From Patescibacteria group bacterium (GTDB taxonomy: Bacteria; Patescibacteriota; Minisyncoccia; Phycocordibacterales; BOKC01), in NCBI GenBank assembly GCA_038062955.1, contig JBBTWE010000001.1, positions 182,304-246,303 of the forward strand: DNA of 64,000 bases, read 5' to 3'. The translations under genes were made by a program, and so were the position numbers. Under the pieces are notes generated by a model. The model was not told the DNA's origin. It searched no databases and saw only the letters and a program-made list of their open reading frames with translations. This document shows, in pieces, positions 2,791-55,460 of the stretch; within the stretch, counting starts at the first letter, position 1; every line of letters begins with the position of its first letter.

Positions 2791-3339
2791 CTATCGCTCG
2801 AGATCGAAGTACTTGGCGGGAGCAAGCGAGATGTACTCGAGACCGAAATCATCGGGATGCTTAACGCCCACCTCCATGTCGTAGCCGTGTCCGATGCTGA
2901 CCACAACGTGCGGCTCGCCTTCCCATTCCACGATGAGCGGGTAGCAGATTTCCTTACCTCGCAGTTGGTCCAAGATCTTCTCTGGTGGAGGAGGAGATCC
3001 GCAACTGGGATCGAATCTGATGACCGGAATCTTGAAGGTTGATTCCAGATCGAGAATGTTCCACCAGAACCGTGAATCGTATTCGGCAGCATCCTCATAC
3101 TCCTTTGCAGACTTCTCGCGAGCGAGCTTCTCGATGAGAGTCCTCGGCACACGCCACGGGCTATCCACAATCACCTGGGCGAGCTTCGTGACGATGTCCT
3201 TGCCCCGCTCGCTGGTGAGGAAGTGAAGCATCTCTTCGAAGCCTCCCAACCTCACGATCTCGTTCACGAGAGCCTGAATGAAGACCATCGCCATGCCGAG
3301 ACCCGACACGAGCGACGACGACGAATTCTTGCTTGCCAT
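2791..3339 (-). CDS. hypothetical protein (GC-rich island A ORFan)
   Basis: 182-aa ORF in a clearly GC-richer block; it has an upstream TTGACT-N16-TACACT promoter-like motif and a downstream hairpin plus T7 terminator at 2714-2746. Confidence 0.55.
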   Translation of the reverse strand: MASKNSSSSLVSGLGMAMVFIQALVNEIVRLGGFEEMLHFLTSERGKDIVTKLAQVIVDSPWRVPRTLIEKLAREKSAKEYEDAAEYDSRFWWNILDLESTFKIPVIRFDPSCGSPPPPEKILDQLRGKEICYPLIVEWEGEPHVVVSIGHGYDMEVGVKHPDDFGLEYISLAPAKYFDLER

Positions 3340-3998: not shown

Positions 3999-4019
3999 CC
4001 CTGCCTGCCGGCAGGCAGG
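3999..4019. repeat. perfect GC palindrome cctgcctgccggcaggcagg (a family; other copies at 35143-35162, and degenerate at 7980-8000, 11003-11021, 44331-44351)
   Basis: identical 20-bp palindrome twice, each followed by ttgRatct; the copies at 35143 and 44331 sit 16-40 bp upstream of tRNA-Ala 5' ends. Confidence 0.7.
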
Positions 4020-11055: not shown

Positions 11056-11253
11056 TTAGCGTGAAGCGGTGCCTCGGGCCTCTACATGTTTGCGGATGAC
11101 ATCAACAAGTTCTTTGGCTACTTGCTCAACTTGTGAGTTCATAACTTGCGATACTGGCTCATGCGGCAAACGAGATCTCATCAATTCAATCTGAAAATGC
11201 ATCAATATGTTGTGAATCTGATCCTCGCTGATAGTCTTGCTGGCAGTGTCCAT
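11056..11253 (-). CDS. hypothetical protein (GC-rich island B ORFan, 65 aa)
   Basis: GC-rich ORF with a perfect ribosome-binding site (AAAAGGAGGcgacaATG) and an upstream TTGGAC promoter-like box; compositionally foreign. Confidence 0.45.
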   Translation of the reverse strand: MDTASKTISEDQIHNILMHFQIELMRSRLPHEPVSQVMNSQVEQVAKELVDVIRKHVEARGTASR

Positions 11254-13796: not shown

Positions 13797-13845
13797 AAAA
13801 AAGCGCCTCGCGATTCGTTGTTCACGAATTTCGCAAGGCGCCGTT
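13797..13845 (-). terminator. intrinsic terminator of island C, homologous to 43016-43064
   Basis: ggcgccttgcgaaattcgtgaacaacgaatcgcgaggcgc plus T7 on the minus strand; about 80% identical to the terminator of island L gene 3. Confidence 0.65.
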
Positions 13846-13870: not shown

Positions 13871-14380
13871 CTACTGCGGTTTGGTGGGAGGCGGAAGGGC
13901 GTGATAAACCGTGAACTGTCGAGGGATTGCTTTGACTTTTGCTTTTTGCCCCTCTATCTCACTCACGAGTTTCCAATTGGCATCGGTCATCTCTGCGTTG
14001 AATACGCTAGCAAGTACATCCTGTTCCTTTTTGATGGCTTCCATCTCATGGGACCAGGAGGAAAGCTGGTTGATCGCCCACTGTGTTTGTGGATTATCAC
14101 CGAAGGAATCCCGCATCGATTTCAGGAAACTCTCGTAGATGAGGATGTCTCTCTGCTTCTTGTAGATTTCTGCAGCGGTATCCTCGAACCACTGGCACCT
14201 CTCGATCATCGCGCGAGGACCAAGTTTCGATGATGTCTCAAACGTAAGTTGGCTAAAGACTATGCATGCAGCCGAGAGACCAAAGATTGCACCTGCCAAC
14301 ATGGCCACAGGTAGTCTCTGTGGCCATTTACCTCTACGATCATCAAGGATCTTTTCCCCATTCAGTTTCGTGGATTCCAT
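13871..14380 (-). CDS. hypothetical membrane-anchored protein (GC-rich island C ORFan)
   Basis: 169 aa with N-terminal TM (LPVAMLAGAIFGLSAACIVF); ribosome-binding site GGAGGAGAAATTGAG-ATG; a palindromic promoter upstream; its terminator is homologous to the one at 43016-43064. Confidence 0.5.
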   Translation of the reverse strand: MESTKLNGEKILDDRRGKWPQRLPVAMLAGAIFGLSAACIVFSQLTFETSSKLGPRAMIERCQWFEDTAAEIYKKQRDILIYESFLKSMRDSFGDNPQTQWAINQLSSWSHEMEAIKKEQDVLASVFNAEMTDANWKLVSEIEGQKAKVKAIPRQFTVYHALPPPTKPQ

Positions 14381-20523: not shown

Positions 20524-20614
20524 ATAAATAGTCTGTAATGTAGAATAGAAAGGTTAAATGGTATTAAACCCTTTGATCGTCTACACGCTCGCTAACCGGA
20601 ATAAAGCAAAACCC

Positions 20615-20658
20615 CCGAACCGAAAGGAACGGGGGTTTTGCTTTTTATTTTGACTTTA
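20615..20658. terminator. bidirectional intrinsic terminator
   Basis: A-run, aaaacccccgaaccgaaaggaacgggggtttt, T-run. Confidence 0.75.
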
Positions 20659-20678
20659 TAACTTTTAACCTTATAACT

Positions 20679-24786: not shown

Positions 24787-25050
24787 TTACTCTTTTCGCT
24801 CGGCACCTTGTTCGACGAGCCAAGCCTCGATTCTCTTCGCATTTTCTGCTGAGAAGAATCCGCGGTAGTATCCAGGACCGCTACTCCCCGAAGTACCAGA
24901 GACTCTGAAGACGCCCTCCTTCAGTTGAAAACTGGTAAATCTGTTGACAAGTCCCCCATCTTCGTAGACGGGATAAGGAGGAGCTTCCTTTTGCTCTCCC
25001 CTTATGCTCACATAGACTCCGGGAATTGTTTCGAAAGTGACTTTTGGCAT
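24787..25050 (-). CDS. hypothetical protein (GC-rich island F ORFan, 87 aa from MPKVTF...)
   Basis: ribosome-binding site AAGGAGaacATG at the internal ATG; TTGACA-N17-TATACT promoter at about 25120-25150; gGGCGGCCATTGCTGGTCGCCC terminator. Confidence 0.5.
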   Translation of the reverse strand: MPKVTFETIPGVYVSIRGEQKEAPPYPVYEDGGLVNRFTSFQLKEGVFRVSGTSGSSGPGYYRGFFSAENAKRIEAWLVEQGAERKE

Positions 25051-25243
25051 GTTCTCCTTCTTTTCGGGTATGATTCGTGACAGCGATGTACTGGCCACGA
25101 TTCTCAAGAAAATAGTTTTTTCTATCGTCCTAAAAACCGCGGCCAGCTACAAAATCAGTGAGTTTTGAATGAACAATTTTCTGCGTCCAGTATACACCCA
25201 TTCGTGTATTTTGTCAAGGACAAATGCACGGCTAGAAATAAGC

Positions 25244-28412: not shown

Positions 28413-28688
28413 CTACTCCTGAAGTTTGTCCCTGATTGCATAGTGCCTCTCCCTCAAGAATACGTGGTGTTCGTTTTCGGTTTTGCCAGCCAAAAACGCA
28501 AGCTTTCGAAGTTCTGCCAGAGCAGCCTGTCGTCGTTCTTGCTGGCTTCTCGACCAGCTCGACACTCCTTGGTAGTTGCCCTCATTCACCCTCTTGCTTT
28601 CAGTCTCAATCTCGACAACTTGTCTGGCAAAATCATCAACAGCTGCGTTGTACCGGTCAAGCGGGCTTATGCTTTCTTCACTACACAT
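28413..28688 (-). CDS. hypothetical protein (GC-rich island G ORFan, 91 aa)
   Basis: GC-rich ORF; ribosome-binding site AAGGAccgctATG; downstream hairpin attaccgacgaag...cctcgtcggtaat plus T-rich tail. Confidence 0.45.
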   Translation of the reverse strand: MCSEESISPLDRYNAAVDDFARQVVEIETESKRVNEGNYQGVSSWSRSQQERRQAALAELRKLAFLAGKTENEHHVFLRERHYAIRDKLQE

Positions 28689-30878: not shown

Positions 30879-31083
30879 ATATCAATAATAACATATTAGT
30901 GGATTCACGATGTAATATCTATGATTCAAGAAAAAGAAGCGTCACAAATTTTTCATGACTACGCCATGAAAAATCTTGCGACGTAATTTTTGTAGTGCAA
31001 AAATTAAAAGCGGGAACCCACGAATGTGGATTCCCGCTGGTTCTGACAGACGGATCTCTACTACTTCTCTCGAGGGCCTACGA

Positions 31084-31356
31084 TCAGGCCTGCTGGAGGA
31101 GTTCCAGCCGATCGAGTGGACGTTGGTTGAGCAACCCTTGGGCAACCTTCCTGATCGGTTGTCTCCTCTTCAGAGCATCCTTGATCCGACTCAACACTCT
31201 CGCGTCGAGGTGGTTCGCTCCACCGCTCTCGAGAATCATCTTCACGAGGCCCAACTCGGGATTGATTTCGCGAAGCTTCGGGGGCGGCTGTTCCTGCATC
31301 AGAGGGCGCATTGACCCTCTGCTTTCTCTGGGACGTGGACGATGACCGTGATTCAT
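31084..31356 (-). CDS. hypothetical protein (GC-rich island H, 90 aa)
   Basis: ribosome-binding site AGGAGAaacgcagg-ATG; strong intrinsic terminator gcgggaatccacattcgtgggttcccgc plus T-run on the minus strand (about 31005-31040). Confidence 0.55.
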   Translation of the reverse strand: MNHGHRPRPRESRGSMRPLMQEQPPPKLREINPELGLVKMILESGGANHLDARVLSRIKDALKRRQPIRKVAQGLLNQRPLDRLELLQQA

Positions 31357-31570
31357 CCTGCGTTTCTCCTACGAGGTTGAGAACTTTCTCTTGGCGTTGT
31401 TGCCTCGAGATCTGCGGTCAATCTTCTCATGGGGAGTTTTGTCTGTCAAAAAAGTTACGCACTTCTCCTTGACATAAAAATCCTAATATATTACACTGGT
31501 AGTCAGAAGAGTTGGCAAGGAGGCCAATTCTCGGTCATTTGTTTCCATGCGTTAGTTTGGAGAAACGGTC

Positions 31571-31795
31571 ATGAGAAAGCAACCGACAACAGAGGTGGAA
31601 ACCAGTCAGCGACCATTCGGGCGCGTACTGGGGGTTCGGATGGCGATGGATCGACTTCCTGAAGAGCCAGCTAGGCTGACTACCAGTTCCCCTGGTGGTC
31701 AGATCGCTCTGGTTCGCTCCACGAAGGTCAGGCGATGCGAAGAACAGGAGATCTCGCTCGCTCTTTGGCACGGAGGCATCACCTCTCGGTCGTGA
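31571..31795 (+). CDS. hypothetical protein (GC-rich island H, 74 aa)
   Basis: ribosome-binding site GGAGAaacggtc-ATG; TTGACA...TACACT promoter; terminator ccccagcatctacggatgctgggg plus T-run at about 31805-31845. Confidence 0.55.
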   Translation: MRKQPTTEVETSQRPFGRVLGVRMAMDRLPEEPARLTTSSPGGQIALVRSTKVRRCEEQEISLALWHGGITSRS

Positions 31796-31843
31796 CGTCT
31801 CGAACCCCAGCATCTACGGATGCTGGGGTTCTTATTTTATATA

Positions 31844-33196
31844 TTAATTTGGGAATTTACCTTTTTCGTATTTGATAAGTGGCAGTTTTGTCCAAATTTC
31901 GTGGATTTGATCAACAATGACCCATGAAGCCTCTACTTCTTCTTCCGAGACAAAAAGATCTTCATTTCCCTTAAAAACTTCCAGGAAAAGTTTTTCGTAC
32001 GATTCACTCGAGTGTCCTTGATACGTTTTTCCCTTGAGATTTATTACTTCCTTTTTATCGGTCTTATCAGTAAAAATTGCTTCTGGTTCCGGCTGGATTC
32101 TAAAGAGAATTTCTTTGATATCTGTTAAATGTTTTGATTCTAATTTGAAAGTTTCTGGTTTTTTAAAAATGACTTTCACTCCAACTTCATTTTTTGACAA
32201 TCCCTTCCCTCCAGCAACAGTGATTTTTACCCCTTCCCATTTTTTGTCTCCAAGTGCTACTGGAAATTTAAAAAAAGTTTCAGTTTCCGAATCGTTCTCT
32301 ACTCCTTTTTCTTTAAGATAACCGATATATTGGCCACGAACTATATCTTTAATGGCAACAGCCTCTAATTTGAGTGCGTTTTTTAAAATATCCGCTCGTC
32401 TTTTTTGAACATTTTTTTCCGCTCCGTTTTCTTGAAGCATATGAGAAAGGACAATCAGTGCGTGATTTTGTCCGACATCTCGTAGAGCGCCAAGTGAATC
32501 ATAAAATTCACCTCGACCCTCAATATCTTTCGTCTCAAAAAGAGTTATATCAATTGATTCAATATGTTCATTATTCCAAATTTTTCTTAAGTTTTCTTTT
32601 TCTGAAAGTGTTTTTGCCGCATGTAAAGTTTCTTTGGTGAGATAGTGGTCAATTTCGTAAATTTGATCCCTTGTTGCAATTTTATTTATCAAAGAATGAA
32701 TTTCTTTAGCTGTTTTGAGATCATGACCAATTGGTTTTTCGATAATAATTTTAGTTTTTCCCGTGCCGTCTGTGCATGAGAGGGTGAGTCCTGTTTTGTG
32801 CATATTTTGGAGAACTAATTCGTAAAATGCTGGCGAGACCGCAAGATGAAACAATTTATCAGAACAATTTCCAAATTTTTCGTCGATTTTTTGAAGCAAA
32901 TTTATTAGAGATTCGTAAGAGGTTGGATCATCAAACTTCCCTTCTGAATACTCAACTAAATTCAAAAAGTCTGTAATTTTTTCATCCCTGTCTTTAAAAT
33001 TTGGAACATTTTCAATGAGAAACTGTCTAAAATCAGAACTTTTAAAATTTCTTCGCGAAAAGCCCACTACTTTCATATTTTTAGGCAGTTTATCTTTTTT
33101 ATACAAACCAAAAAGTGCTGGGAAAAGTTTTTTTCGTGCAAGGTCTCCTGTCGCGCCTAAAATTATGATAGTAGTCGCCTTTTTTGAGTTATCCAT
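31844..33196 (-). CDS. zwf: glucose-6-phosphate 1-dehydrogenase
   Basis: IIILGATGDLARKKLFPALFGLY NAD(P)-binding motif; G6PD C-terminal domain. Confidence 0.9.
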   Translation of the reverse strand: MDNSKKATTIIILGATGDLARKKLFPALFGLYKKDKLPKNMKVVGFSRRNFKSSDFRQFLIENVPNFKDRDEKITDFLNLVEYSEGKFDDPTSYESLINLLQKIDEKFGNCSDKLFHLAVSPAFYELVLQNMHKTGLTLSCTDGTGKTKIIIEKPIGHDLKTAKEIHSLINKIATRDQIYEIDHYLTKETLHAAKTLSEKENLRKIWNNEHIESIDITLFETKDIEGRGEFYDSLGALRDVGQNHALIVLSHMLQENGAEKNVQKRRADILKNALKLEAVAIKDIVRGQYIGYLKEKGVENDSETETFFKFPVALGDKKWEGVKITVAGGKGLSKNEVGVKVIFKKPETFKLESKHLTDIKEILFRIQPEPEAIFTDKTDKKEVINLKGKTYQGHSSESYEKLFLEVFKGNEDLFVSEEEVEASWVIVDQIHEIWTKLPLIKYEKGKFPN

Positions 33197-33311: not shown

Positions 33312-33986
33312 TTGAAAAAGGCACGGCTTCTCGTGTTTGAGTCAGGTGGGGTAGCCCCAGAGATCGGCGGGTCAGAATTCGAAAACCTGGTTCATGCTTC
33401 ACGGAAAGGAGAATTGAACGCCGAGATCGTTGGAGTGGTATCGAACCATGCAAACGGCGGTGTGCGTGCGCGCGCTGGGAGATTGGAAGTTCCGTTCTTC
33501 CATTTTGCAAGTCCTTGGAATGCCACAAGATACCAAGAAGTTGCCATGCGAAGCGACGCGAATTTCTTCGCTCTTTCTGGATGGGACAAGTATGTGGTAG
33601 GTCTTGACCTCGACACTTGCTTCAGTTCGAAGACAGTGTTCAATATTCATCATGGCCCTCTACCGGATTCCGGTGGACAAGGAATGTATGGACATCGTGT
33701 TCACAGAAGAGTCATAGCAACATTTCGGCGAGGTGAGATAAGAGACACCGCTGTCACCATGCAATTCGTCACTGCCAATGGATACAATTGCGGTCCGGTT
33801 TTCTTTCGACACAGGATTCCGATCCTGGAGCGTGAGATGCCAGAAGCTTTGGCAAAACGTGTTGGTGAATGGGGGCATCGTCTCCAACCACAAGTTACCG
33901 ACTGGGTAGTGAACGGTCTCGTCAGATGGGACGGAGTGAATTGGGATTCTCTTCGGATTCCCGAAACCATTCGTTCTGGGTGCTGA
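33312..33986 (+). CDS. formyltransferase-domain protein (PurN/GAR-transformylase-like, divergent)
   Basis: AEIVGVVSNHAN..., FNIHHGPLP (matches NIHPSLLP with Asn/His), FVTANGYNCGPV region; GC-rich; plus-strand terminator gcgactcttaaacgggtcgc plus T7. Confidence 0.5.
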   Translation: MKKARLLVFESGGVAPEIGGSEFENLVHASRKGELNAEIVGVVSNHANGGVRARAGRLEVPFFHFASPWNATRYQEVAMRSDANFFALSGWDKYVVGLDLDTCFSSKTVFNIHHGPLPDSGGQGMYGHRVHRRVIATFRRGEIRDTAVTMQFVTANGYNCGPVFFRHRIPILEREMPEALAKRVGEWGHRLQPQVTDWVVNGLVRWDGVNWDSLRIPETIRSGC

Positions 33987-34040
33987 TCGGTCACAATTCG
34001 TACGAGCGACTCTTAAACGGGTCGCTTTTTTTATGTATAA

Positions 34041-34090
34041 AAAAATCGCGGGAAAATCTTGAAGATTCTCTACCGCGATTTGAACGAACT
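34041..34090. terminator. back-to-back terminators between the formyltransferase (+) and GNAT (-) genes; the minus-strand one is homologous to 34538-34590
   Basis: shared aaaaaa(t/c)cgcggga-N14-ctctaccgcgatttg framework with a variable loop. Confidence 0.55.
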
Positions 34091-34091
34091 C

Positions 34092-34439
34092 CTATGCTGA
34101 TTGTTTGAGGTTCATTCGGAACTCTTTACCGTATTCTTTGAAACCCAAATCGATATAGAGTCTGTGCACACTAACACGAATGCGTCGGCTTGTGGCGATC
34201 AGTTTGTAGCACCCCAAAGACCTCGCTTTTTCGATGAGTTTGACGACGAGAGAACTCCCAATGCTCTTTCCTCGCAAGTGCGGATCAACATACACATCTT
34301 CCATAAGTCCGAATGGTTCTTCGTGCAGATCGTTGCCCAAAACATAGAGAAATGCTCGAGCAACCTCTTTACCACCCCTTCTGACGCTAAACCTGAAACC
34401 TTGGCATCTGCGTTCGAGTGTGACTGCTACTTCGTCCAT
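34092..34439 (-). CDS. GNAT-family N-acetyltransferase
   Basis: VYVDPHLRGKSIGSSLVVKLIEKARSLGCYKLIA (acetyl-CoA binding motif A); convergent with the formyltransferase gene. Confidence 0.65.
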   Translation of the reverse strand: MDEVAVTLERRCQGFRFSVRRGGKEVARAFLYVLGNDLHEEPFGLMEDVYVDPHLRGKSIGSSLVVKLIEKARSLGCYKLIATSRRIRVSVHRLYIDLGFKEYGKEFRMNLKQSA

Positions 34440-34591
34440 TTTTGTTCTCCTTGTTAGTCCGGAACGAGTATATGCGGAAGAAAGTTAAAAATCAAACCCG
34501 CCAAAGTTTTTTCGAAGAAAAAATTTAGGCGGGTAAATAAAAAAACCGCGGGAGTGTCGTATGACCCTCTACCGCGATTTGCCATCCAACT

Positions 34592-34819
34592 TTAGCGCCA
34601 AGAGCTGATTACGATTGCCAATTGTGTAACTGCAAGAGCAGCCTCAAAGTTGTCTCGGTAATCTGCAAACCCTTCCAACATATCTCTAAGGAAATCCTGC
34701 TGTCCTTCGTAAAGAGACATATTGCCAGGAATACCAACCAGAAGGGCTTTGACAAGCCCAGCGGTTCTTGGTGTCGCTATTCTTTCTAGGTAGTCTCTCG
34801 CGTTTACTATATCTGCCAT
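34592..34819 (-). CDS. hypothetical protein (GC-rich island J, 75 aa)
   Basis: ribosome-binding site AAGGAcgacagATG; TTGACA promoter abutting a tRNA-derived repeat; terminator homologous to the one at 34041-34090. Confidence 0.45.
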   Translation of the reverse strand: MADIVNARDYLERIATPRTAGLVKALLVGIPGNMSLYEGQQDFLRDMLEGFADYRDNFEAALAVTQLAIVISSWR

Positions 34820-34920
34820 CTGTCGTCCTTGCGATGGTATGTCATCGTCATTGTTGCGTTTTCTAAGAAGATCAATCTACTTTTACGTTATCGTGGATTC
34901 TTTAGCTTGTCAAAATTTGG

Positions 34921-34937
34921 TGGACCATAGCGGGATC
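34921..34937. repeat. 17-bp exact direct repeat of the tRNA-Ala(GGC) 3' end (tggaccatagcgggatc; second copy inside the tRNA at 35055-35071); att-like
   Basis: exact 17/17 match 117 bp from the tRNA 3' end; a further inverted partial T-arm copy ttcgatcccgctacgg lies at 35002-35017. Confidence 0.7.
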
Positions 34938-35054
34938 TCCACCTACCGTGGCGGGTGGTTTTCGATTTCGTAAACTCAATAACGAAAACCCTTTCGATCC
35001 CGCTACGGAGTGAAGCAGTTCACTCCTCCGGTTCCTAACTCACTGCGTTCGTTG

Positions 35055-35127
35055 TGGACCATAGCGGGATCGAACCGCTCACCTCGCACATGCCATGCGC
35101 GCGCTCTACCAAATGAGCTAATGGCCC
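35055..35127 (-). tRNA. tRNA-Ala (anticodon GGC)
   Basis: revcomp is GGGCCATTAGCTCATTTGGTAGAGCGCGCGCATGGCATGTGCGAGGTGAGCGGTTCGATCCCGCTATGGTCCA: cloverleaf with G3:U70, anticodon loop AUGGCAU, T-loop GGTTCGATCC; CCA is not encoded. Confidence 0.9.
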
Positions 35128-35142
35128 TTTAAATTTATGATT

Positions 35143-35162
35143 CCTGCCTGCCGGCAGGCAGG
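35143..35162. repeat. perfect GC palindrome cctgcctgccggcaggcagg, second copy
   Basis: identical to 3999-4019. Confidence 0.7.
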
Positions 35163-40956: not shown

Positions 40957-41012
40957 ATCATAAAGATAAAAACCCTTGTTTTTAGGCCTAGTTATGGAAT
41001 TAGGAGGATTTT
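40957..41012. repeat. about 55-bp direct repeat (second copy 41538-41596, about 85% identical), each followed by a TTGACA promoter
   Basis: acaattatatcataaagataaaaa(c/g)c(c/t)ttgtttttag... aligned by eye. Confidence 0.65.
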
Positions 41013-41026
41013 ATAGAAAATTCGCT

Positions 41027-41055
41027 TGACAATAAACTAGATGTGTGTATAATAT
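41027..41055 (+). promoter_or_regulatory. near-consensus sigma70-type promoter TTGACA-N16-TATAAT with TGn
   Basis: cgcTTGACAataaactagatgtgTGtgTATAATatac. Confidence 0.6.
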
Positions 41056-41064
41056 ACAAGGATA

Positions 41065-41478
41065 CGTTCGGCGCCAAATCCTTAAATGGCGAACACATGT
41101 CACTACGGGGTACAGCGATATGTGAGGCCAGCGTAGTATGTTTTCTCTCCCCATCCGACATACCACAAACGGTAACGGAAGAAGAAAGAGAAATAAGTTC
41201 CAGGCCGTGTCTCCATCCTGGAACGAAGCAAAAAAGAGACAACAAAAAAGACAAATTCTGCTATGATCCCGGGAAAGTTCCCGTGCGATCGAAGGTTCTA
41301 GACGGTGAGAATCTGTTCGCGATCCCGGGTTAAATCCTGGGCGAACATAAGGCCAAGATGCCACAACCGAGCACCCTGAGGATTGGTCTCCTCGCGTCCC
41401 ATAGGCCGCGTACTGGGTGATGATACTTTGACCACGGGCCGGAGCAACGATTCAGTCGTTTGCTTCGGCCCTTTTTTA
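41065..41478 (+). ncRNA. promoter/terminator-bounded GC-rich transcription unit (about 410 nt): structured ncRNA candidate, or a 79-aa Cys-containing small protein without a ribosome-binding site
   Basis: near-consensus TTGACA-N16(TGtG)-TATAAT at 41027-41055; multiple perfect hairpins (gttccagg...cctggaac, gttcgc...gcgaac); terminator gggccgg...cggccc plus T6 at 41436-41478; no RNase P / tmRNA / SRP signatures. Confidence 0.4.
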
Positions 41479-41665
41479 TTGCAAATTTTTAGGTATTTGT
41501 AGATGTGTGATGCGAATAAAAAGCAAAAAAGCGAATATAACAATTATATCATAAAGATAAAAAGCTTTGTTTTTAGACGTTTTTGTGGAATTATGCTAAT
41601 TTTACTTGACATTTTCCTGTATTATGATATTATCTAAATAGAACATCCAACCCACAGGAGGACTT

Positions 41666-41941
41666 ATGGAACCATACATGATGAAAAGGGCAGATGTAGA
41701 GGTCATGCTCATCTACATCAGAAGTGGCCTAATCCATCAGCATCAAGAAACAAACCGTAGTGACTTGATTGCAATTTTCGAAGCTGCACTTGCCGTTGCC
41801 GATCCGAAGCACTCGGGTAAGTACGTTTTTGTCAATTTCGGAGAGGGAGACCGTTACCATGACTTGTGGCATCAATACGGTGACCTGATCCGGGAGATCT
41901 GCTTCAGATACGAAACCATGCGGCAAGGTGGAAGACCCTAG
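41666..41941 (+). CDS. hypothetical protein (GC-rich island K2, 91 aa)
   Basis: TTGACA promoter (duplicated module) plus perfect ribosome-binding site AGGAGGacttATG. Confidence 0.5.
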   Translation: MEPYMMKRADVEVMLIYIRSGLIHQHQETNRSDLIAIFEAALAVADPKHSGKYVFVNFGEGDRYHDLWHQYGDLIREICFRYETMRQGGRP

Positions 41942-42990: not shown

Positions 42991-43015
42991 GTATTATATC
43001 AAAATTTTGTATAAA

Positions 43016-43064
43016 AAAAGCGCCTCGCGTTTAAATCGTTTTCACGAATTTCCGCAAGGCACTT
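43016..43064 (-). terminator. intrinsic terminator of island L, homologous to 13797-13845
   Basis: gtgccttgcggaaattcgtgaaaacgatttaaacgcgaggcgc plus T7 on the minus strand. Confidence 0.65.
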
Positions 43065-43083
43065 TGACGTACGACTACCGCAC

Positions 43084-43518
43084 TCAATCTGGGAGAATGG
43101 ATGCCGGAATCGGGATGGCCACGCAACGGATTTGGCGGTCTGGAATGGTTACCAGTTGCCAGTTCTCGCGCAGGCCGATCTGTTCTGTGTTGACAATCTC
43201 AGGGAATGTATGCCGCACACTGTGCCAGAAACAAGAGTGGGCAAGGTCGAATCGATTTCTGATCACCCCAAGTGCTCTTGTGGCATCGTTTGTCTGCCTC
43301 TCATCCAGATCGAGAAGACTCCCCAACTTCGAGATCCGGTGCTTGAGCTCACCGCGTTCGTTTTCCGCGATTCTCATGACCGTGTAGAGACGCTTGAGAT
43401 CGTCCGGCAACGTGCCGATGACTTTCTCGCCCTCCTCCACCTTCCCCGTCGGACATTGAATATCCGCGAGAGGAACGCCCTCTGCCCGACTCAAGATTTC
43501 CTTCAGTAGCACTGTCAT
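43084..43518 (-). CDS. hypothetical protein (GC-rich island L gene 3, 144 aa)
   Basis: own TTGACA-N17-TAATAT promoter and ribosome-binding site AAGGAGGGcaaaATG; its terminator is homologous to the island C terminator. Confidence 0.5.
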   Translation of the reverse strand: MTVLLKEILSRAEGVPLADIQCPTGKVEEGEKVIGTLPDDLKRLYTVMRIAENERGELKHRISKLGSLLDLDERQTNDATRALGVIRNRFDLAHSCFWHSVRHTFPEIVNTEQIGLRENWQLVTIPDRQIRCVAIPIPASILPD

Positions 43519-43615
43519 TTTGCCCTCCTTGTGGGCTTGGAACTATTTCCGAGGAAGATATTAGTATACCTTTAGAATAATGTCAAATAGTGAGAATTTT
43601 AATAAAAAAACGGCC

Positions 43616-43912
43616 TCAACGCGTTTGCGCCAAGACCGTGAAAACTGCCACAAGAACAAGCAAGAAGAGCAAATCGAGAATAGCACGAGTTCTGTGCCGA
43701 ATCATCATCGGTTTTTGCGGAAGACGTTCTAGGACATCAGCGGGAACCTTCATGATGCAACCTAGTTCATCTCTGTGCAAGATCGGCACACATCCAAAGG
43801 GAACTGCGTCGGCTGGAAATGCGACCACCCTTGCTAGGCGATCTCGATATCTTACGATATCTCCACACTTGAATCTTCCTGCCCACACGGTGTTGTATGT
43901 TCTGTGAGCCAT
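43616..43912 (-). CDS. hypothetical protein with C-terminal TM (island L gene 2, 98 aa)
   Basis: GC-rich ORF, translationally adjacent to gene 1 (3-nt spacer). Confidence 0.45.
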   Translation of the reverse strand: MAHRTYNTVWAGRFKCGDIVRYRDRLARVVAFPADAVPFGCVPILHRDELGCIMKVPADVLERLPQKPMMIRHRTRAILDLLFLLVLVAVFTVLAQTR

Positions 43913-43914
43913 TC

Positions 43915-44112
43915 TTACCCCTCCTGTTGTTCGTGATCTGATGCTGGTCTATTCCTTCTCAACCTGCCTTCAGCAAGCCTTCGTTCGTGTTCTTCTGTTG
44001 TAACACAGAGGCATTCGCCATCCTCGCATTGTTCACGATGCGTATCTTGAATGCATCTGGTTAGACCATCAAGCTGTGCCTTTGAGAGAAGGCCGTTATT
44101 GTTCATGACCAC
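43915..44112 (-). CDS. hypothetical Cys-rich small protein (island L gene 1, 65 aa)
   Basis: C-x(9)-C-x(5)-C-x-C; perfect ribosome-binding site AAGGAGGTGgtcATG. Confidence 0.45.
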   Translation of the reverse strand: MVMNNNGLLSKAQLDGLTRCIQDTHREQCEDGECLCVTTEEHERRLAEGRLRRNRPASDHEQQEG

Positions 44113-44216
44113 CTCCTTTTGTGACGTGTATGTTCTAGGACGATAACATTATGCCATCGTCTCATCCGTTTTGATAGTAGTATATGTAATATAAAAAGTC
44201 TAGAGAAAATTATTTT

Positions 44217-44290
44217 TGGTGGACCTAGCGAGAATCGAACTCGCGCCTCTACAATGCGAATGTAGCATTTTACCACTGAACTATAGGCCC
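44217..44290 (-). tRNA. tRNA-Ala (anticodon CGC), CCA encoded
   Basis: revcomp is GGGCCTATAGTTCAGTGGTAAAATGCTACATTCGCATTGTAGAGGCGCGAGTTCGATTCTCGCTAGGTCCACCA; G3:U70; anticodon loop UUCGCAU. Confidence 0.85.
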
Positions 44291-44369
44291 AAACTAAATT
44301 CAAAAGGCAAAAATCAAAACTCAAAATTTACCCGCCTACCGGCAAGGCAGGAATTCAAAATTTTTATAT

Positions 44370-51370: not shown

Positions 51371-51814
51371 TCAGTCCATCTTCTTTTGTTGCCAATCGAC
51401 AACTAAGAAAACACTGACTAACGTATGGTCGGAAACCAGAATCGGAACTTCCACGATGCGAATTGAATCTCCTACTTTCCACGGAATGAATGCCGGAGAG
51501 ATGCTGGCAGGCATAGCTACAAAATTGACAAAGGCCGTAAGAGTCCCACCGGTGTGAGTTTCAAACTCCACCTGCATGAGTCCAACAAAGTCTTGCCCTT
51601 TAGGGCCATCGAGGTCGATCACCTTCACCGGCATGTGAGCAACTTTCACCCACCTTCCCGGGCCAGTAAGTCCATCCGGATGCGTAGCAATAATTGACGG
51701 CCCGATCTCAGAACTTGCGATGGCTACAGGTATCACTCCGAATAGTATGTAATAAACACCAAAACAGATGATAATGGCCATCAATGCAGCCAGAGCTTTC
51801 ACTAGAGCTTTCAT
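51371..51814 (-). CDS. hypothetical exported/membrane-anchored protein (GC-rich island M, 147 aa)
   Basis: N-terminal signal-like hydrophobic region; ribosome-binding site AAGGGAGacaaacgATG; TTGACT...TATGTTAC promoter similar to island A. Confidence 0.5.
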   Translation of the reverse strand: MKALVKALAALMAIIICFGVYYILFGVIPVAIASSEIGPSIIATHPDGLTGPGRWVKVAHMPVKVIDLDGPKGQDFVGLMQVEFETHTGGTLTAFVNFVAMPASISPAFIPWKVGDSIRIVEVPILVSDHTLVSVFLVVDWQQKKMD

Positions 51815-54512: not shown

Positions 54513-55460
54513 ATGTCTATATCAGATTCGGACACATCGTCCGAAAGTAATCCGCGAAATTCCGCGGGCAGTTCTTTCAAAAAAGAGGGTCTCGTGAATA
54601 CGGAAACAAGAAAGATTGGTCTTGCCTGCTTCATCGGTGGTTTCCTCGGTTGTATCGTGGCGCTCATCTGTACACCGGCCTTCTGGTGGCTCGGTCTCAT
54701 TGCTGGGTTTGCGGGTGGCTACGTGAGCTACGAGTTCCGTTCGGTGCTTCAGGCGATTCCCAAGGCGTTTTTGCAGGTGCAGAAGGAATTCAGTCTCGAT
54801 TTCGTGAGAGCTTGTTTTCAGGGAACAAAAAAATGGTTTGCCAAGCCTCATCCGATTGTTTACTTCGGGCTGTGTTCAGGACTCTTGTGGACCATCATTG
54901 AGGTACTGTTTGATGTTAGTCCTCCAAAGAGATTGGATGGCCAATTACCCCAAATAGACGATTTCGTTGCTCTCTATCTCATCACTTTCCTTGGGTCTGG
55001 ATTCTGTTCCGGGCTTATTGGTGTTACTGTCGTGTTGATAGGAGCTCGTGATGAGATTGGTTTCGTGCCAGACGATTTTTTTGGTGGGTATAGAGAAGCT
55101 CTCAACCACGCCACTGTCGGAGTCGGTCGAGTTCTGAAGTTCGTCTTCTGGACAGCCAGCGTGAAGATCGTTCTGTGGACCATACCGAAGTGGGTATTTC
55201 TAGTGATCTTTGTCTTGGGAGCATGGTGCTGGGAACTCTTCAAGATCATCCACTCGGACAAGCGTCTGCTCTGTGGAGTAGACAGCGCAATTGGTGTGGC
55301 AACAGGCTACATCTTGGCCTTGGGGCAATCCGCTTCATTGGTTGAGTCCTTGTTCTTCTCCACTTATGCCGGACTCATTGGAGCGGTACTCGGGATTCTC
55401 AACTGGGAGCTCGTTTCCAAGCGATGGCTCAAGGTACCCGTGAAGGTAAGAGCGGATTAG
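54513..55460 (+). CDS. hypothetical polytopic membrane protein (GC-rich island N, 315 aa)
   Basis: 8 or more predicted TM segments; TTGAC promoter-like boxes at 54465-54500; hairpin plus T6 terminator at 55468-55515. Confidence 0.5.
   Translation: MSISDSDTSSESNPRNSAGSSFKKEGLVNTETRKIGLACFIGGFLGCIVALICTPAFWWLGLIAGFAGGYVSYEFRSVLQAIPKAFLQVQKEFSLDFVRACFQGTKKWFAKPHPIVYFGLCSGLLWTIIEVLFDVSPPKRLDGQLPQIDDFVALYLITFLGSGFCSGLIGVTVVLIGARDEIGFVPDDFFGGYREALNHATVGVGRVLKFVFWTASVKIVLWTIPKWVFLVIFVLGAWCWELFKIIHSDKRLLCGVDSAIGVATGYILALGQSASLVESLFFSTYAGLIGAVLGILNWELVSKRWLKVPVKVRAD

Follow-up and report, generated by a model that had tools for sequence, protein, structure and literature searches.

Two Putative Moron-Like Gene Cassettes of Different Age beside a tRNA-Ala Gene in a Patescibacteria Chromosome

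The Locus and Its Two Transcription Units

A stretch of 64,000 nucleotides from the chromosome of a Patescibacteria group bacterium (contig JBBTWE010000001.1, positions 182,304 to 246,303), hereafter called the window, has an overall guanine plus cytosine (GC) content of 38.5%. On its minus strand, behind the gene of tRNA-Ala(CGC), lie three small open reading frames (ORF1, ORF2, and ORF3; Table 1), which are annotated in NCBI as hypothetical proteins (MEK7552007–MEK7552009). The neighbours of this island are genes for Tag glycosylase, GerMN (Pfam Germane), and VIT1, so that the surroundings are of the housekeeping type. An earlier note on this DNA had described the three minus-strand reading frames and the tRNA gene, all of which are present, and had taken them for one three-gene operon and one foreign island. 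The operon does not hold, because a strong terminator and a promoter lie between ORF2 and ORF3 and divide the region into two transcription units. On balance we think it probable that these units are two autonomous, moron-like accessory cassettes of different age in an AT-rich chromosome of the Patescibacteria, also called Candidate Phyla Radiation (CPR).

The promoters, Shine-Dalgarno (SD) sites, and terminators of both units are sequence-based predictions. ORF1 can be read from a GTG (43915–44112, 65 amino acids) or from an ATG at position 44106 which follows AAGGAGGTG and yields 63 amino acids; the ATG is the more likely start. The SD site of ORF2, AGGAGGGG, is located within the 3' end of ORF1, and the spacer between the two genes is 2 nucleotides, so that the translational adjacency claimed in the earlier note stands and its 3-nucleotide spacer does not. 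To judge from these signals ORF1 and ORF2 are a translationally coupled bicistron with a promoter and a terminator of its own. ORF3 has its own TTGACA-N17-TAATAT promoter (43586–43558), as had been recognized before, and its promoter, strong SD site, and terminator are all in the right orientation. A repeat search found the -10 region to be common to the promoters of the two units. The folding z-scores of the terminator hairpins were -3.4 for ORF1-ORF2 (43639–43610) and -5.1 for ORF3 (about 43062–43020).

Table 1: Features of the tRNA-Ala(CGC) locus and positions of examples of other cassettes in the window.
Feature	Position	Strand	Remarks
tRNA-Ala(CGC)	44217..44290	-	ARAGORN; Rfam 65.5 bits; CCA end encoded
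ORF1-ORF2 promoter, TAGACT-N17-TACTAT	44174..44202	-	read from sequence
ORF1, 63 amino acids, MEK7552009.1	43915..44106	-	small charged protein; SD AAGGAGG
ORF2, 98 amino acids, MEK7552008.1	43616..43912	-	SH3/Tudor-like barrel and C-terminal transmembrane helix
ORF1-ORF2 intrinsic terminator	43603..43639	-	13-bp stem, then seven U; hairpin 43639–43610
ORF3 promoter, TTGACA-N17-TAATAT	43558..43586	-	read from sequence
ORF3, 144 amino acids, MEK7552007.1	43084..43518	-	ORFan; SD AAGGAGGG
ORF3 intrinsic terminator	43013..43062	-	hairpin about 43062–43020, T-run 43019–43013
Degenerate palindrome copy, CCTGCCTTGCCGGTAGGCGGG	44331..44351	-	between Tag stop and tRNA 5' end
Other cassette	2791..3339
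Other cassette	11056..11253
Other cassette	13871..14380
Other cassette	24787..25107
Other cassette	28413..28688
Other cassette	33312..34819
Other cassette	41666..41941
Other cassette	51371..51814
Other cassette	54513..55460

Composition and Translation Signals

The GC content of ORF1 (0.474), ORF2 (0.495), and ORF3 (0.545) was compared with that of 37 core genes (0.367 ± 0.022). The resulting z-scores of 4.8, 5.8, and 8.0 put the compositional difference seen in the earlier note on a quantitative footing. At the third codon position (GC3) the values were 0.39, 0.465, and 0.634 versus 0.318 ± 0.040 for the core, which makes ORF3 the most deviant of the three, with a GC3 7.8 standard deviations over the core.

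Another difference concerns the initiation of translation. When the regions upstream of every candidate start within the first 30 codons were scanned in the 37 core genes, a strong SD site (AGGAGG, GGAGG, or AGGAG) was found in none of them, whereas such a site is present in nine of the 12 genes of GC-rich cassettes, among them ORF1, ORF2, and ORF3 (one-sided Fisher test, about 1e-7 by hand calculation). Sixteen of the 37 core genes have a -10-like box at most 20 nucleotides from the start, which suggests leaderless mRNAs. Most cassettes in turn carry a near-consensus TTGAC(A/T) -35 box, a long leader, and a terminator made up of a hairpin followed by TTTTTTTAT. The same SD contrast was found in five other CPR loci (L092, L094, L096, L120, and L123) which contain genes of the SH3-like family to which ORF2 belongs. 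The GC3 of this family is 0.45–0.57, irrespective of the GC3 of the host, which ranges from 0.25 to 0.6. Taken from sequence comparison, the contrast in signals and the family GC3 favour a horizontally exchanged pool of genes with expression signals of its own. Paralogy among the GC-rich reading frames of the window was tested for and not found.

The GC content changes sharply at the cassette borders, as it would if GC-rich foreign reads had been joined into an AT-rich contig by an assembly error or contamination. Such a chimera is extremely unlikely, since identical junctions occur in at least five independent assemblies and samples of groundwater from Hainich, Germany (well H43), one of them a 277-kb contig (ERZ1292632 Hain_H43_01um_R2_8), since the three proteins are also encoded on an NCBI contig of about 702 kb, and since the cassettes begin and end at promoters and terminators. 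Within the population a ratio of nonsynonymous to synonymous substitutions (dN/dS) could not be computed, the Hainich contigs being 100% identical throughout. Breaks of Logan contigs inside the tRNA were considered as signs of strain variants and rejected, as they are repeat-induced.

Conservation in Relatives and the ORF3 Unit

Orthologues of ORF1 and ORF2 with 57–58% amino acid identity are found on two contigs from the Rifle aquifer (L090 and L091). The Rifle cassette is 68.9% identical to the window at the nucleotide level over 44209–43603, a stretch which begins 8 nucleotides behind the tRNA and includes the terminator of ORF2. The dN/dS values were 0.22 for ORF2 and 0.13 for ORF1 (C-terminal 46 codons, compared with L090) at a dS above 1, from which it follows that both genes are protein-coding and under purifying selection. 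The promoter of the pair is the same in L090 at 38 of 39 nucleotides (read by eye), as compared to 69% identity in the coding part, and the terminator of the ORF2 orthologue in the Rifle contig closely resembles that of the window. The ORF1 homologue of L090 (153–341) has a frameshift of 1 nucleotide relative to the window gene, which may be due to a low-coverage assembly error, may make it a pseudogene, or may leave a product of 44 amino acids from an internal GTG.

Next to the conserved pair the content of the locus varies. In L091 the terminator of the ORF2 orthologue is followed by a paralogue of ORF2, and there is no ORF3. Two further short contigs (L118 and L119) carry an orthologue of GerMN with 64% amino acid identity. 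Directly upstream of it they have the transmembrane tail of an ORF2-family protein (ending in RDLFLLFISVVVFSVLSSR before the stop) and a terminator, and their nucleotide homology with the window restarts within the T-run that follows the terminator of ORF3 (43022). ORF3 is therefore missing between the ORF2-family gene and GerMN in these contigs. This comparison of the same site is based on contigs of relatives which cover the GerMN side and ORF1-ORF2. The search for GerMN homologues yielded, in addition to L118 and L119, one untraceable match of 75% and one nonsyntenic locus. With Tag as a query against the GTDB genomes only distant relatives of at most 69% identity were obtained, in some of which Tag is followed by tRNA-Ala(TGC) and then by unrelated genes. 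In metagenomes, the 3' half of the tRNA gene matched only distant CPR members, whose tRNA-Ala(CGC) genes are identical in this half and differ in the D-arm.

One foreign island, as pictured in the earlier note, is not compatible with these results: conservation in relatives, which had been named there as evidence against foreign origin, was found for the ORF1-ORF2 pair and not for ORF3. The third slot is variable among the relatives, and from the sequences compared ORF3 alone has the appearance of an insertion specific to this lineage.

Among 5.8 billion protein clusters ORF3 matched its own cluster only, and tblastn searches and scans of phages, plasmids, and IMG/VR found no match. Its frame is nevertheless coding-like, with a purine-rich first codon position and the lowest GC content at the second, and a stop-free run of its length was improbable in shuffled sequences (P = 0.016). 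Structure prediction, which the earlier note had recommended, succeeded for ORF2 (see below); the single-sequence AlphaFold2 model of ORF3 had a predicted local distance difference test score (pLDDT) of 51, was unusable, and was left out of the fold search. The 591-bp ORF3 unit lies between imperfect direct repeats of 21 nucleotides (43006–43026, plus strand, and 43597–43617), 17 of which are identical. This bracketing would fit an insertion of the unit at a terminator, a weak hint in view of the low complexity of the repeats, which consist of a terminator end and a T-run. The resemblance of the ORF3 terminator to the one at 13797–13845 was borne out: 17 nucleotides are identical and the remaining hairpin is common as well. 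The parts shared by 13797–13845 and 43014–43062 are GCGCCTTGCG, AATTCGTGAA, and CGCGAGGCGC followed by TTTTTTTATA. The terminator at 13797–13845 belongs to an unrelated GC-rich gene (13871–14380, 169 amino acids), and further copies of the common motif were found neither in the window nor in IMG/VR.

A Small-Barrel Protein and Its Putative Partner

Searches of Pfam, NCBIfam, PHROGs, and PADLOC with ORF1, ORF2, and ORF3 gave nothing significant, nor did PDB sequence searches with ORF1, ORF3, and a profile of the ORF2 family. In two large protein collections about 30 small-protein relatives of ORF2 were found, which come from Patescibacteria and groundwater and follow the consensus W-P/A-G-G-F-x-x-G-D-A-V-x-H-x-G-R-x-A-H-V-V...V-P-I-M-Y-D-D-E...V-P-A-D-D-L. 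They form a family which has been undescribed until now and whose barrel is membrane-anchored in some members; others are soluble proteins of 61–68 amino acids, consist of tandem repeats, or are fused to membrane segments of a different kind.

The AlphaFold2 model of ORF2, calculated from an alignment of 31 sequences, reached a pLDDT of 91.7. It consists of a barrel (residues ~7–68, with strands at 19–22, 25–29, 41–46, and 53–57), a basic linker, and a helix at residues 73–97, in agreement with the C-terminal transmembrane helix that had been predicted before. In this it conforms to the SH3-like fold, a small barrel of about five strands, and it superposes on known members. Foldseek recovered proteins of the same fold class, yet none at E <= 0.001. 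A relationship to R67-type (DfrB) dihydrofolate reductase was considered and rejected, the hhalign probability being 1.1%, Pfam giving no match, and FVxVPADDL standing where VQIY sits in that enzyme. The fold is thus a generic SH3-like barrel and uninformative on function. As the C-terminal hydrophobic helix is preceded by R/H/R/R, the positive-inside rule places the barrel in the cytoplasm, and on this model ORF2 would be a tail-anchored protein.

The cysteines of ORF1 had been read as C-x9-C-x5-C-x-C and assigned to a zinc ribbon; the spacing is C-x8-C-x4-C-x-C, and a ribbon with two CxxC/CxxH knuckles is not present. The first of the four cysteines is not conserved (it is a serine in L090 and has no aligned cysteine in the fusion protein described below), and the conserved motif is C-x4-C-x-C-x5-H, followed by EEHERxLA. 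The pattern common to three sequences of the ORF1 type is E-x-C-x4-C-x-C-(V/I)-T-x-E-E-H-(E/K)-R-x-L-A. The fusion protein, P0025 (132 amino acids, JGI contig Ga0163150_10001608, the locus L094), joins an ORF2-type barrel to a C-terminal ORF1-like segment, the match of ORF1 to its C-terminal half having an E value of 1e-5 in tblastn. Since the two genes are coupled in both genomes and their domains are fused in P0025, ORF1 and ORF2 appear to act together, most simply as a complex. By these sequence relationships they probably work as a membrane-anchored two-protein complex.

A translationally coupled pair of two genes is also the typical layout of type II toxin-antitoxin systems, and the toxins CcdB and MazF have the SH3-like barrel fold, so ORF1 might be taken for an antitoxin and ORF2 for its toxin. 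This is very unlikely. Pfam, NCBIfam, and PADLOC revealed no recognizable toxin or antitoxin domain, the pairing is not obligatory, as many family members are solitary single genes and both domains are fused in P0025, and ORF2 is predicted to be anchored in the membrane.

In L120 (3473–4822) an SH3-like gene is part of a small GC-rich cluster of tiny reading frames, and in L123 (4001–4404) an SH3-like pair is surrounded by clustered tRNA genes (Trp, Thr, and Tyr). The tiny reading frames beside the SH3-like genes of these two loci code for 59-, 54-, and 69-amino-acid two-transmembrane proteins; none of them is related to ORF1.

The tRNA-Ala Genes

The position of the island, together with that of a second GC-rich region at tRNA-Ala(GGC), had led to the suggestion that tRNA-Ala genes are insertion hot-spots for one type of element. 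The island would then be the remnant of a single integrative element whose attachment (att) site was the 3' end of tRNA-Ala(CGC); the start of the cassette 8 nucleotides behind that end speaks for this. At three of seven independent loci, namely in the window, in L094 (behind tRNA-Ala(GGC)), and in L123 (behind tRNA-Thr), a gene of the SH3-like family is found no more than about 0.5 kb from the 3' end of a tRNA. The count, made post hoc and on few loci, is suggestive of a link to tRNAs. Furthermore, an insertion of 135 bp is located exactly at the 3' end of tRNA-Ala(GGC) (34920–35071) and is absent from L094. It is flanked by 18-nucleotide repeats of the tRNA end (GTGGACCATAGCGGGATC, plus strand; 34920–34937 and 35054–35071), and within it a portion of the T-arm is present again in inverted orientation. 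Its sequence is suggestive of an att-type scar or of a tiny element that targets tRNA genes, and site-specific recombination at tRNA-Ala has probably occurred in this genome.

At tRNA-Ala(CGC) itself, however, no second copy of the 21-nucleotide 3' end was found in the window, even with three mismatches allowed, and the repeat search likewise detected none, so that the att-like repeat expected in the earlier note is lacking here. Neither an integrase nor a recombinase gene was found in or beside the island. In L090 the 50 nucleotides upstream of the cassette are not tRNA, and the two cassettes of the island differ in age. The window contains at least ten other GC-rich units, most of them away from tRNAs, and the occurrence of two at tRNA-Ala genes is therefore not clearly above chance. 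A single integrative-element remnant is thus unlikely; the hot-spot idea draws weak support from the three of seven loci and the scar at tRNA-Ala(GGC), and is set back by the missing integrase and att site and the near-chance count.

The tRNA-Ala(GGC) region can be compared with L094, which stems from a close relative (89.5% amino acid identity of an ATPase; 74 of 74 nucleotides of tRNA-Ala(GGC) identical). The slot between a gene for a 75-amino-acid protein and a formyltransferase gene holds a GNAT acetyltransferase gene (34092–34439, minus strand) in the window and P0025 (5001–5399) in L094. This GNAT cassette stands between two terminators of mutual homology (T-runs at 34545 and 34045), and L094 contains a purM (AIRS) gene without counterpart in the window. 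The CCA end is encoded in tRNA-Ala(CGC) (44217–44219) and not in the GGC (35054) and TGC (53286) genes.

The palindrome that had been noticed just upstream of the tRNA is present as a degenerate copy, while its supposed tie to tRNA-Ala did not stand: the perfect 20-nucleotide form CCTGCCTGCCGGCAGGCAGG occurs at 35143–35162 and at 4000–4019, the latter far from tRNAs. It was also found in a Staskawiczbacteria locus (L010, 1615–1634), 80 nucleotides 3' of tRNA-Arg, and is missing from the orthologous site upstream of tRNA-Ala(GGC) in L094. The copy at 44331–44351 is probably a terminator or an element of the repetitive extragenic palindrome (REP) type which belongs to the host backbone rather than to the island, and CCTGCCTGCCGGCAGGCAGG may be a REP-like or terminator element common across CPR genera. 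In the island region Rfam detected the tRNA only.

Other GC-Rich Regions and RNA Matches in the Window

Two additional regions, 30919–31917 and 41011–41600, are GC-rich and have reading frames on both strands which are not protein-like. In the first, patches of the nucleotide sequence are conserved in L094 (31574–31469 and 31425–31319), and neither has a match in Rfam; they may be structured RNAs of a new type or decayed cassettes. An Rfam match to ohsC_RNA at 20603–20669 (minus strand) scored 55 bits at a gathering score of 50. A very stable hairpin which resembles a terminator (GCAAAACCCCCG...CGGGGGTTTTGC) overlaps the match, so that in this phylum it is likely to be spurious.

Age, Origin, and Possible Function of the Cassettes

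In the interpretation that we prefer, that of two autonomous cassettes of different age, each cassette consists of a predicted sigma-70-type promoter, a leader with a canonical SD site, one or two small GC-rich genes, and a strong intrinsic terminator. Having these signals of their own, the cassettes would be expressed independently of their neighbours, by an SD-dependent initiation which the core genes seemingly do not use. The ORF1-ORF2 cassette would be an old resident, conserved in relatives. ORF2 would form a cytoplasmic SH3-like barrel tethered to the membrane by its C-terminal helix, and ORF1, a small protein with a CCCH motif, would be made in a fixed ratio to it by translational coupling and bind to the barrel, resulting in a membrane-anchored complex of two proteins. 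The ORF3 cassette would be a later, lineage-specific insertion or replacement between the ORF2 terminator and GerMN.

A different view is that all these genes are native, vertically inherited, and lineage-specific, and that their high GC content and their SD sites stem from a separate class of regulation or expression, or from the amino acid composition of the products, instead of horizontal transfer. The conservation of ORF1-ORF2 at a dS above 1 and the ORF2-family gene beside GerMN in relatives are in line with this, as are the surplus GC of ORF1, which is found at codon positions 1 and 2, and the genes of the 75-amino-acid protein and the formyltransferase, which are GC-rich and SD-led yet syntenic with L094. 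Four observations make this view unlikely: ORF3 is an ORFan absent from relatives with a GC3 far over the core; the GC3 of the SH3-like family does not depend on that of the host; its genes occupy unrelated loci in different genomes; and one slot contains different genes in close relatives, GNAT in the window and P0025 in L094.

The preferred interpretation of two autonomous cassettes has to cope with several contrary points as well. The GC3 of ORF1 is inside the core range, and some GC-rich, SD-led genes have been kept over a dS of about 1, so the class is not simply recent. At tRNA-Ala(GGC) the gene of the 75-amino-acid protein (51% amino acid identity) and the formyltransferase gene (70%) are syntenic in L094; being GC-rich therefore does not mean being recent, and GC-richness may be a stable trait of this gene class instead of a mark of recent transfer. 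The Rifle contigs L090 and L091 may not be continuous with L118 and L119, and with a comparator as distant as 64% amino acid identity ORF3 may have been lost in L118 and L119. The ORF1-ORF2 complex is deduced from translational coupling and a single fusion, and most family members are solitary or accompanied by other small partners. Finally, neither a donor nor a mobile-element gene, an integrase, or an att site was found, so that a horizontal origin is argued from composition and signals.

A wider proposal, which we regard as an improbable speculation, is that AT-rich Patescibacteria without SD sites in their core genes host a distinct population of horizontally exchanged GC-rich minigene cassettes, each with a consensus -35/-10 promoter, a leader, and a strong SD site and terminator. 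Terminator hairpins and the 3' flanks of tRNAs would be the places where cassettes are gained and swapped, through a recombination mechanism provided in trans. If this were true, the pair of SH3-like barrel and CCCH protein would be one recurrent cargo of such cassettes, and the cassettes, which would make up about 15% of the window, would represent a "second genome compartment" with a translation mode of its own. More notable than the locus, which is in itself of moderate interest, is a by-product, the genome-wide contrast of an SD-less core with SD-led cassettes. Should this split be general, the accessory or mobile genes of CPR bacteria could be recognized by a simple rule at the sequence level, and it raises the question how cells as reduced as these accommodate two ways of initiating translation. 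In organisms in which most small reading frames are unannotated, a new small-protein family with a partner domain pointed out by a gene fusion offers a testable pair.

Comparison with Known Systems

Like tRNA-associated islands, the region lies on the 3' side of a tRNA, has a deviant GC content, and contains accessory reading frames. Unlike them it is only 1.2 kb long, is composed of an older and a younger unit, is conserved in part in relatives, and is without integrase and att repeat. With integrons the cassettes share a variable slot for different small genes and 3' palindromes common to unrelated cassettes. They differ from integron cassettes in having promoters of their own and in that their hairpins are ordinary intrinsic terminators with T-runs. 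An integron array was rejected for this reason and because neither scans nor annotation of the genes around the island showed IntI, and attI was not seen.

Known small barrels of the SH3-like type include Tudor, PWWP, KOW, R67 type II dihydrofolate reductase, and KorB-C. ORF2 resembles them at the level of structure only; in sequence it has no relationship to them (no Pfam or PDB sequence matches) and is characterized by its own motifs WxGGF, GDxV, VPIMYDDE, and VPADDL and, in this copy, by the C-terminal membrane anchor.

The morons of phages, as described by Hendrix and colleagues, are reportedly autonomous units of promoter, gene, and terminator inserted between other genes. Unlike these, the units of the window lie between housekeeping genes of a CPR chromosome, outside any prophage and with no phage genes nearby, and tblastn searches of phages and plasmids and scans of IMG/VR gave no match for the ORF2 family, ORF3, or the common terminator motif. 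In their build the two units are nevertheless like phage morons: both have a promoter and a terminator of their own, stand between unrelated genes from which they deviate in composition, and carry small accessory genes.

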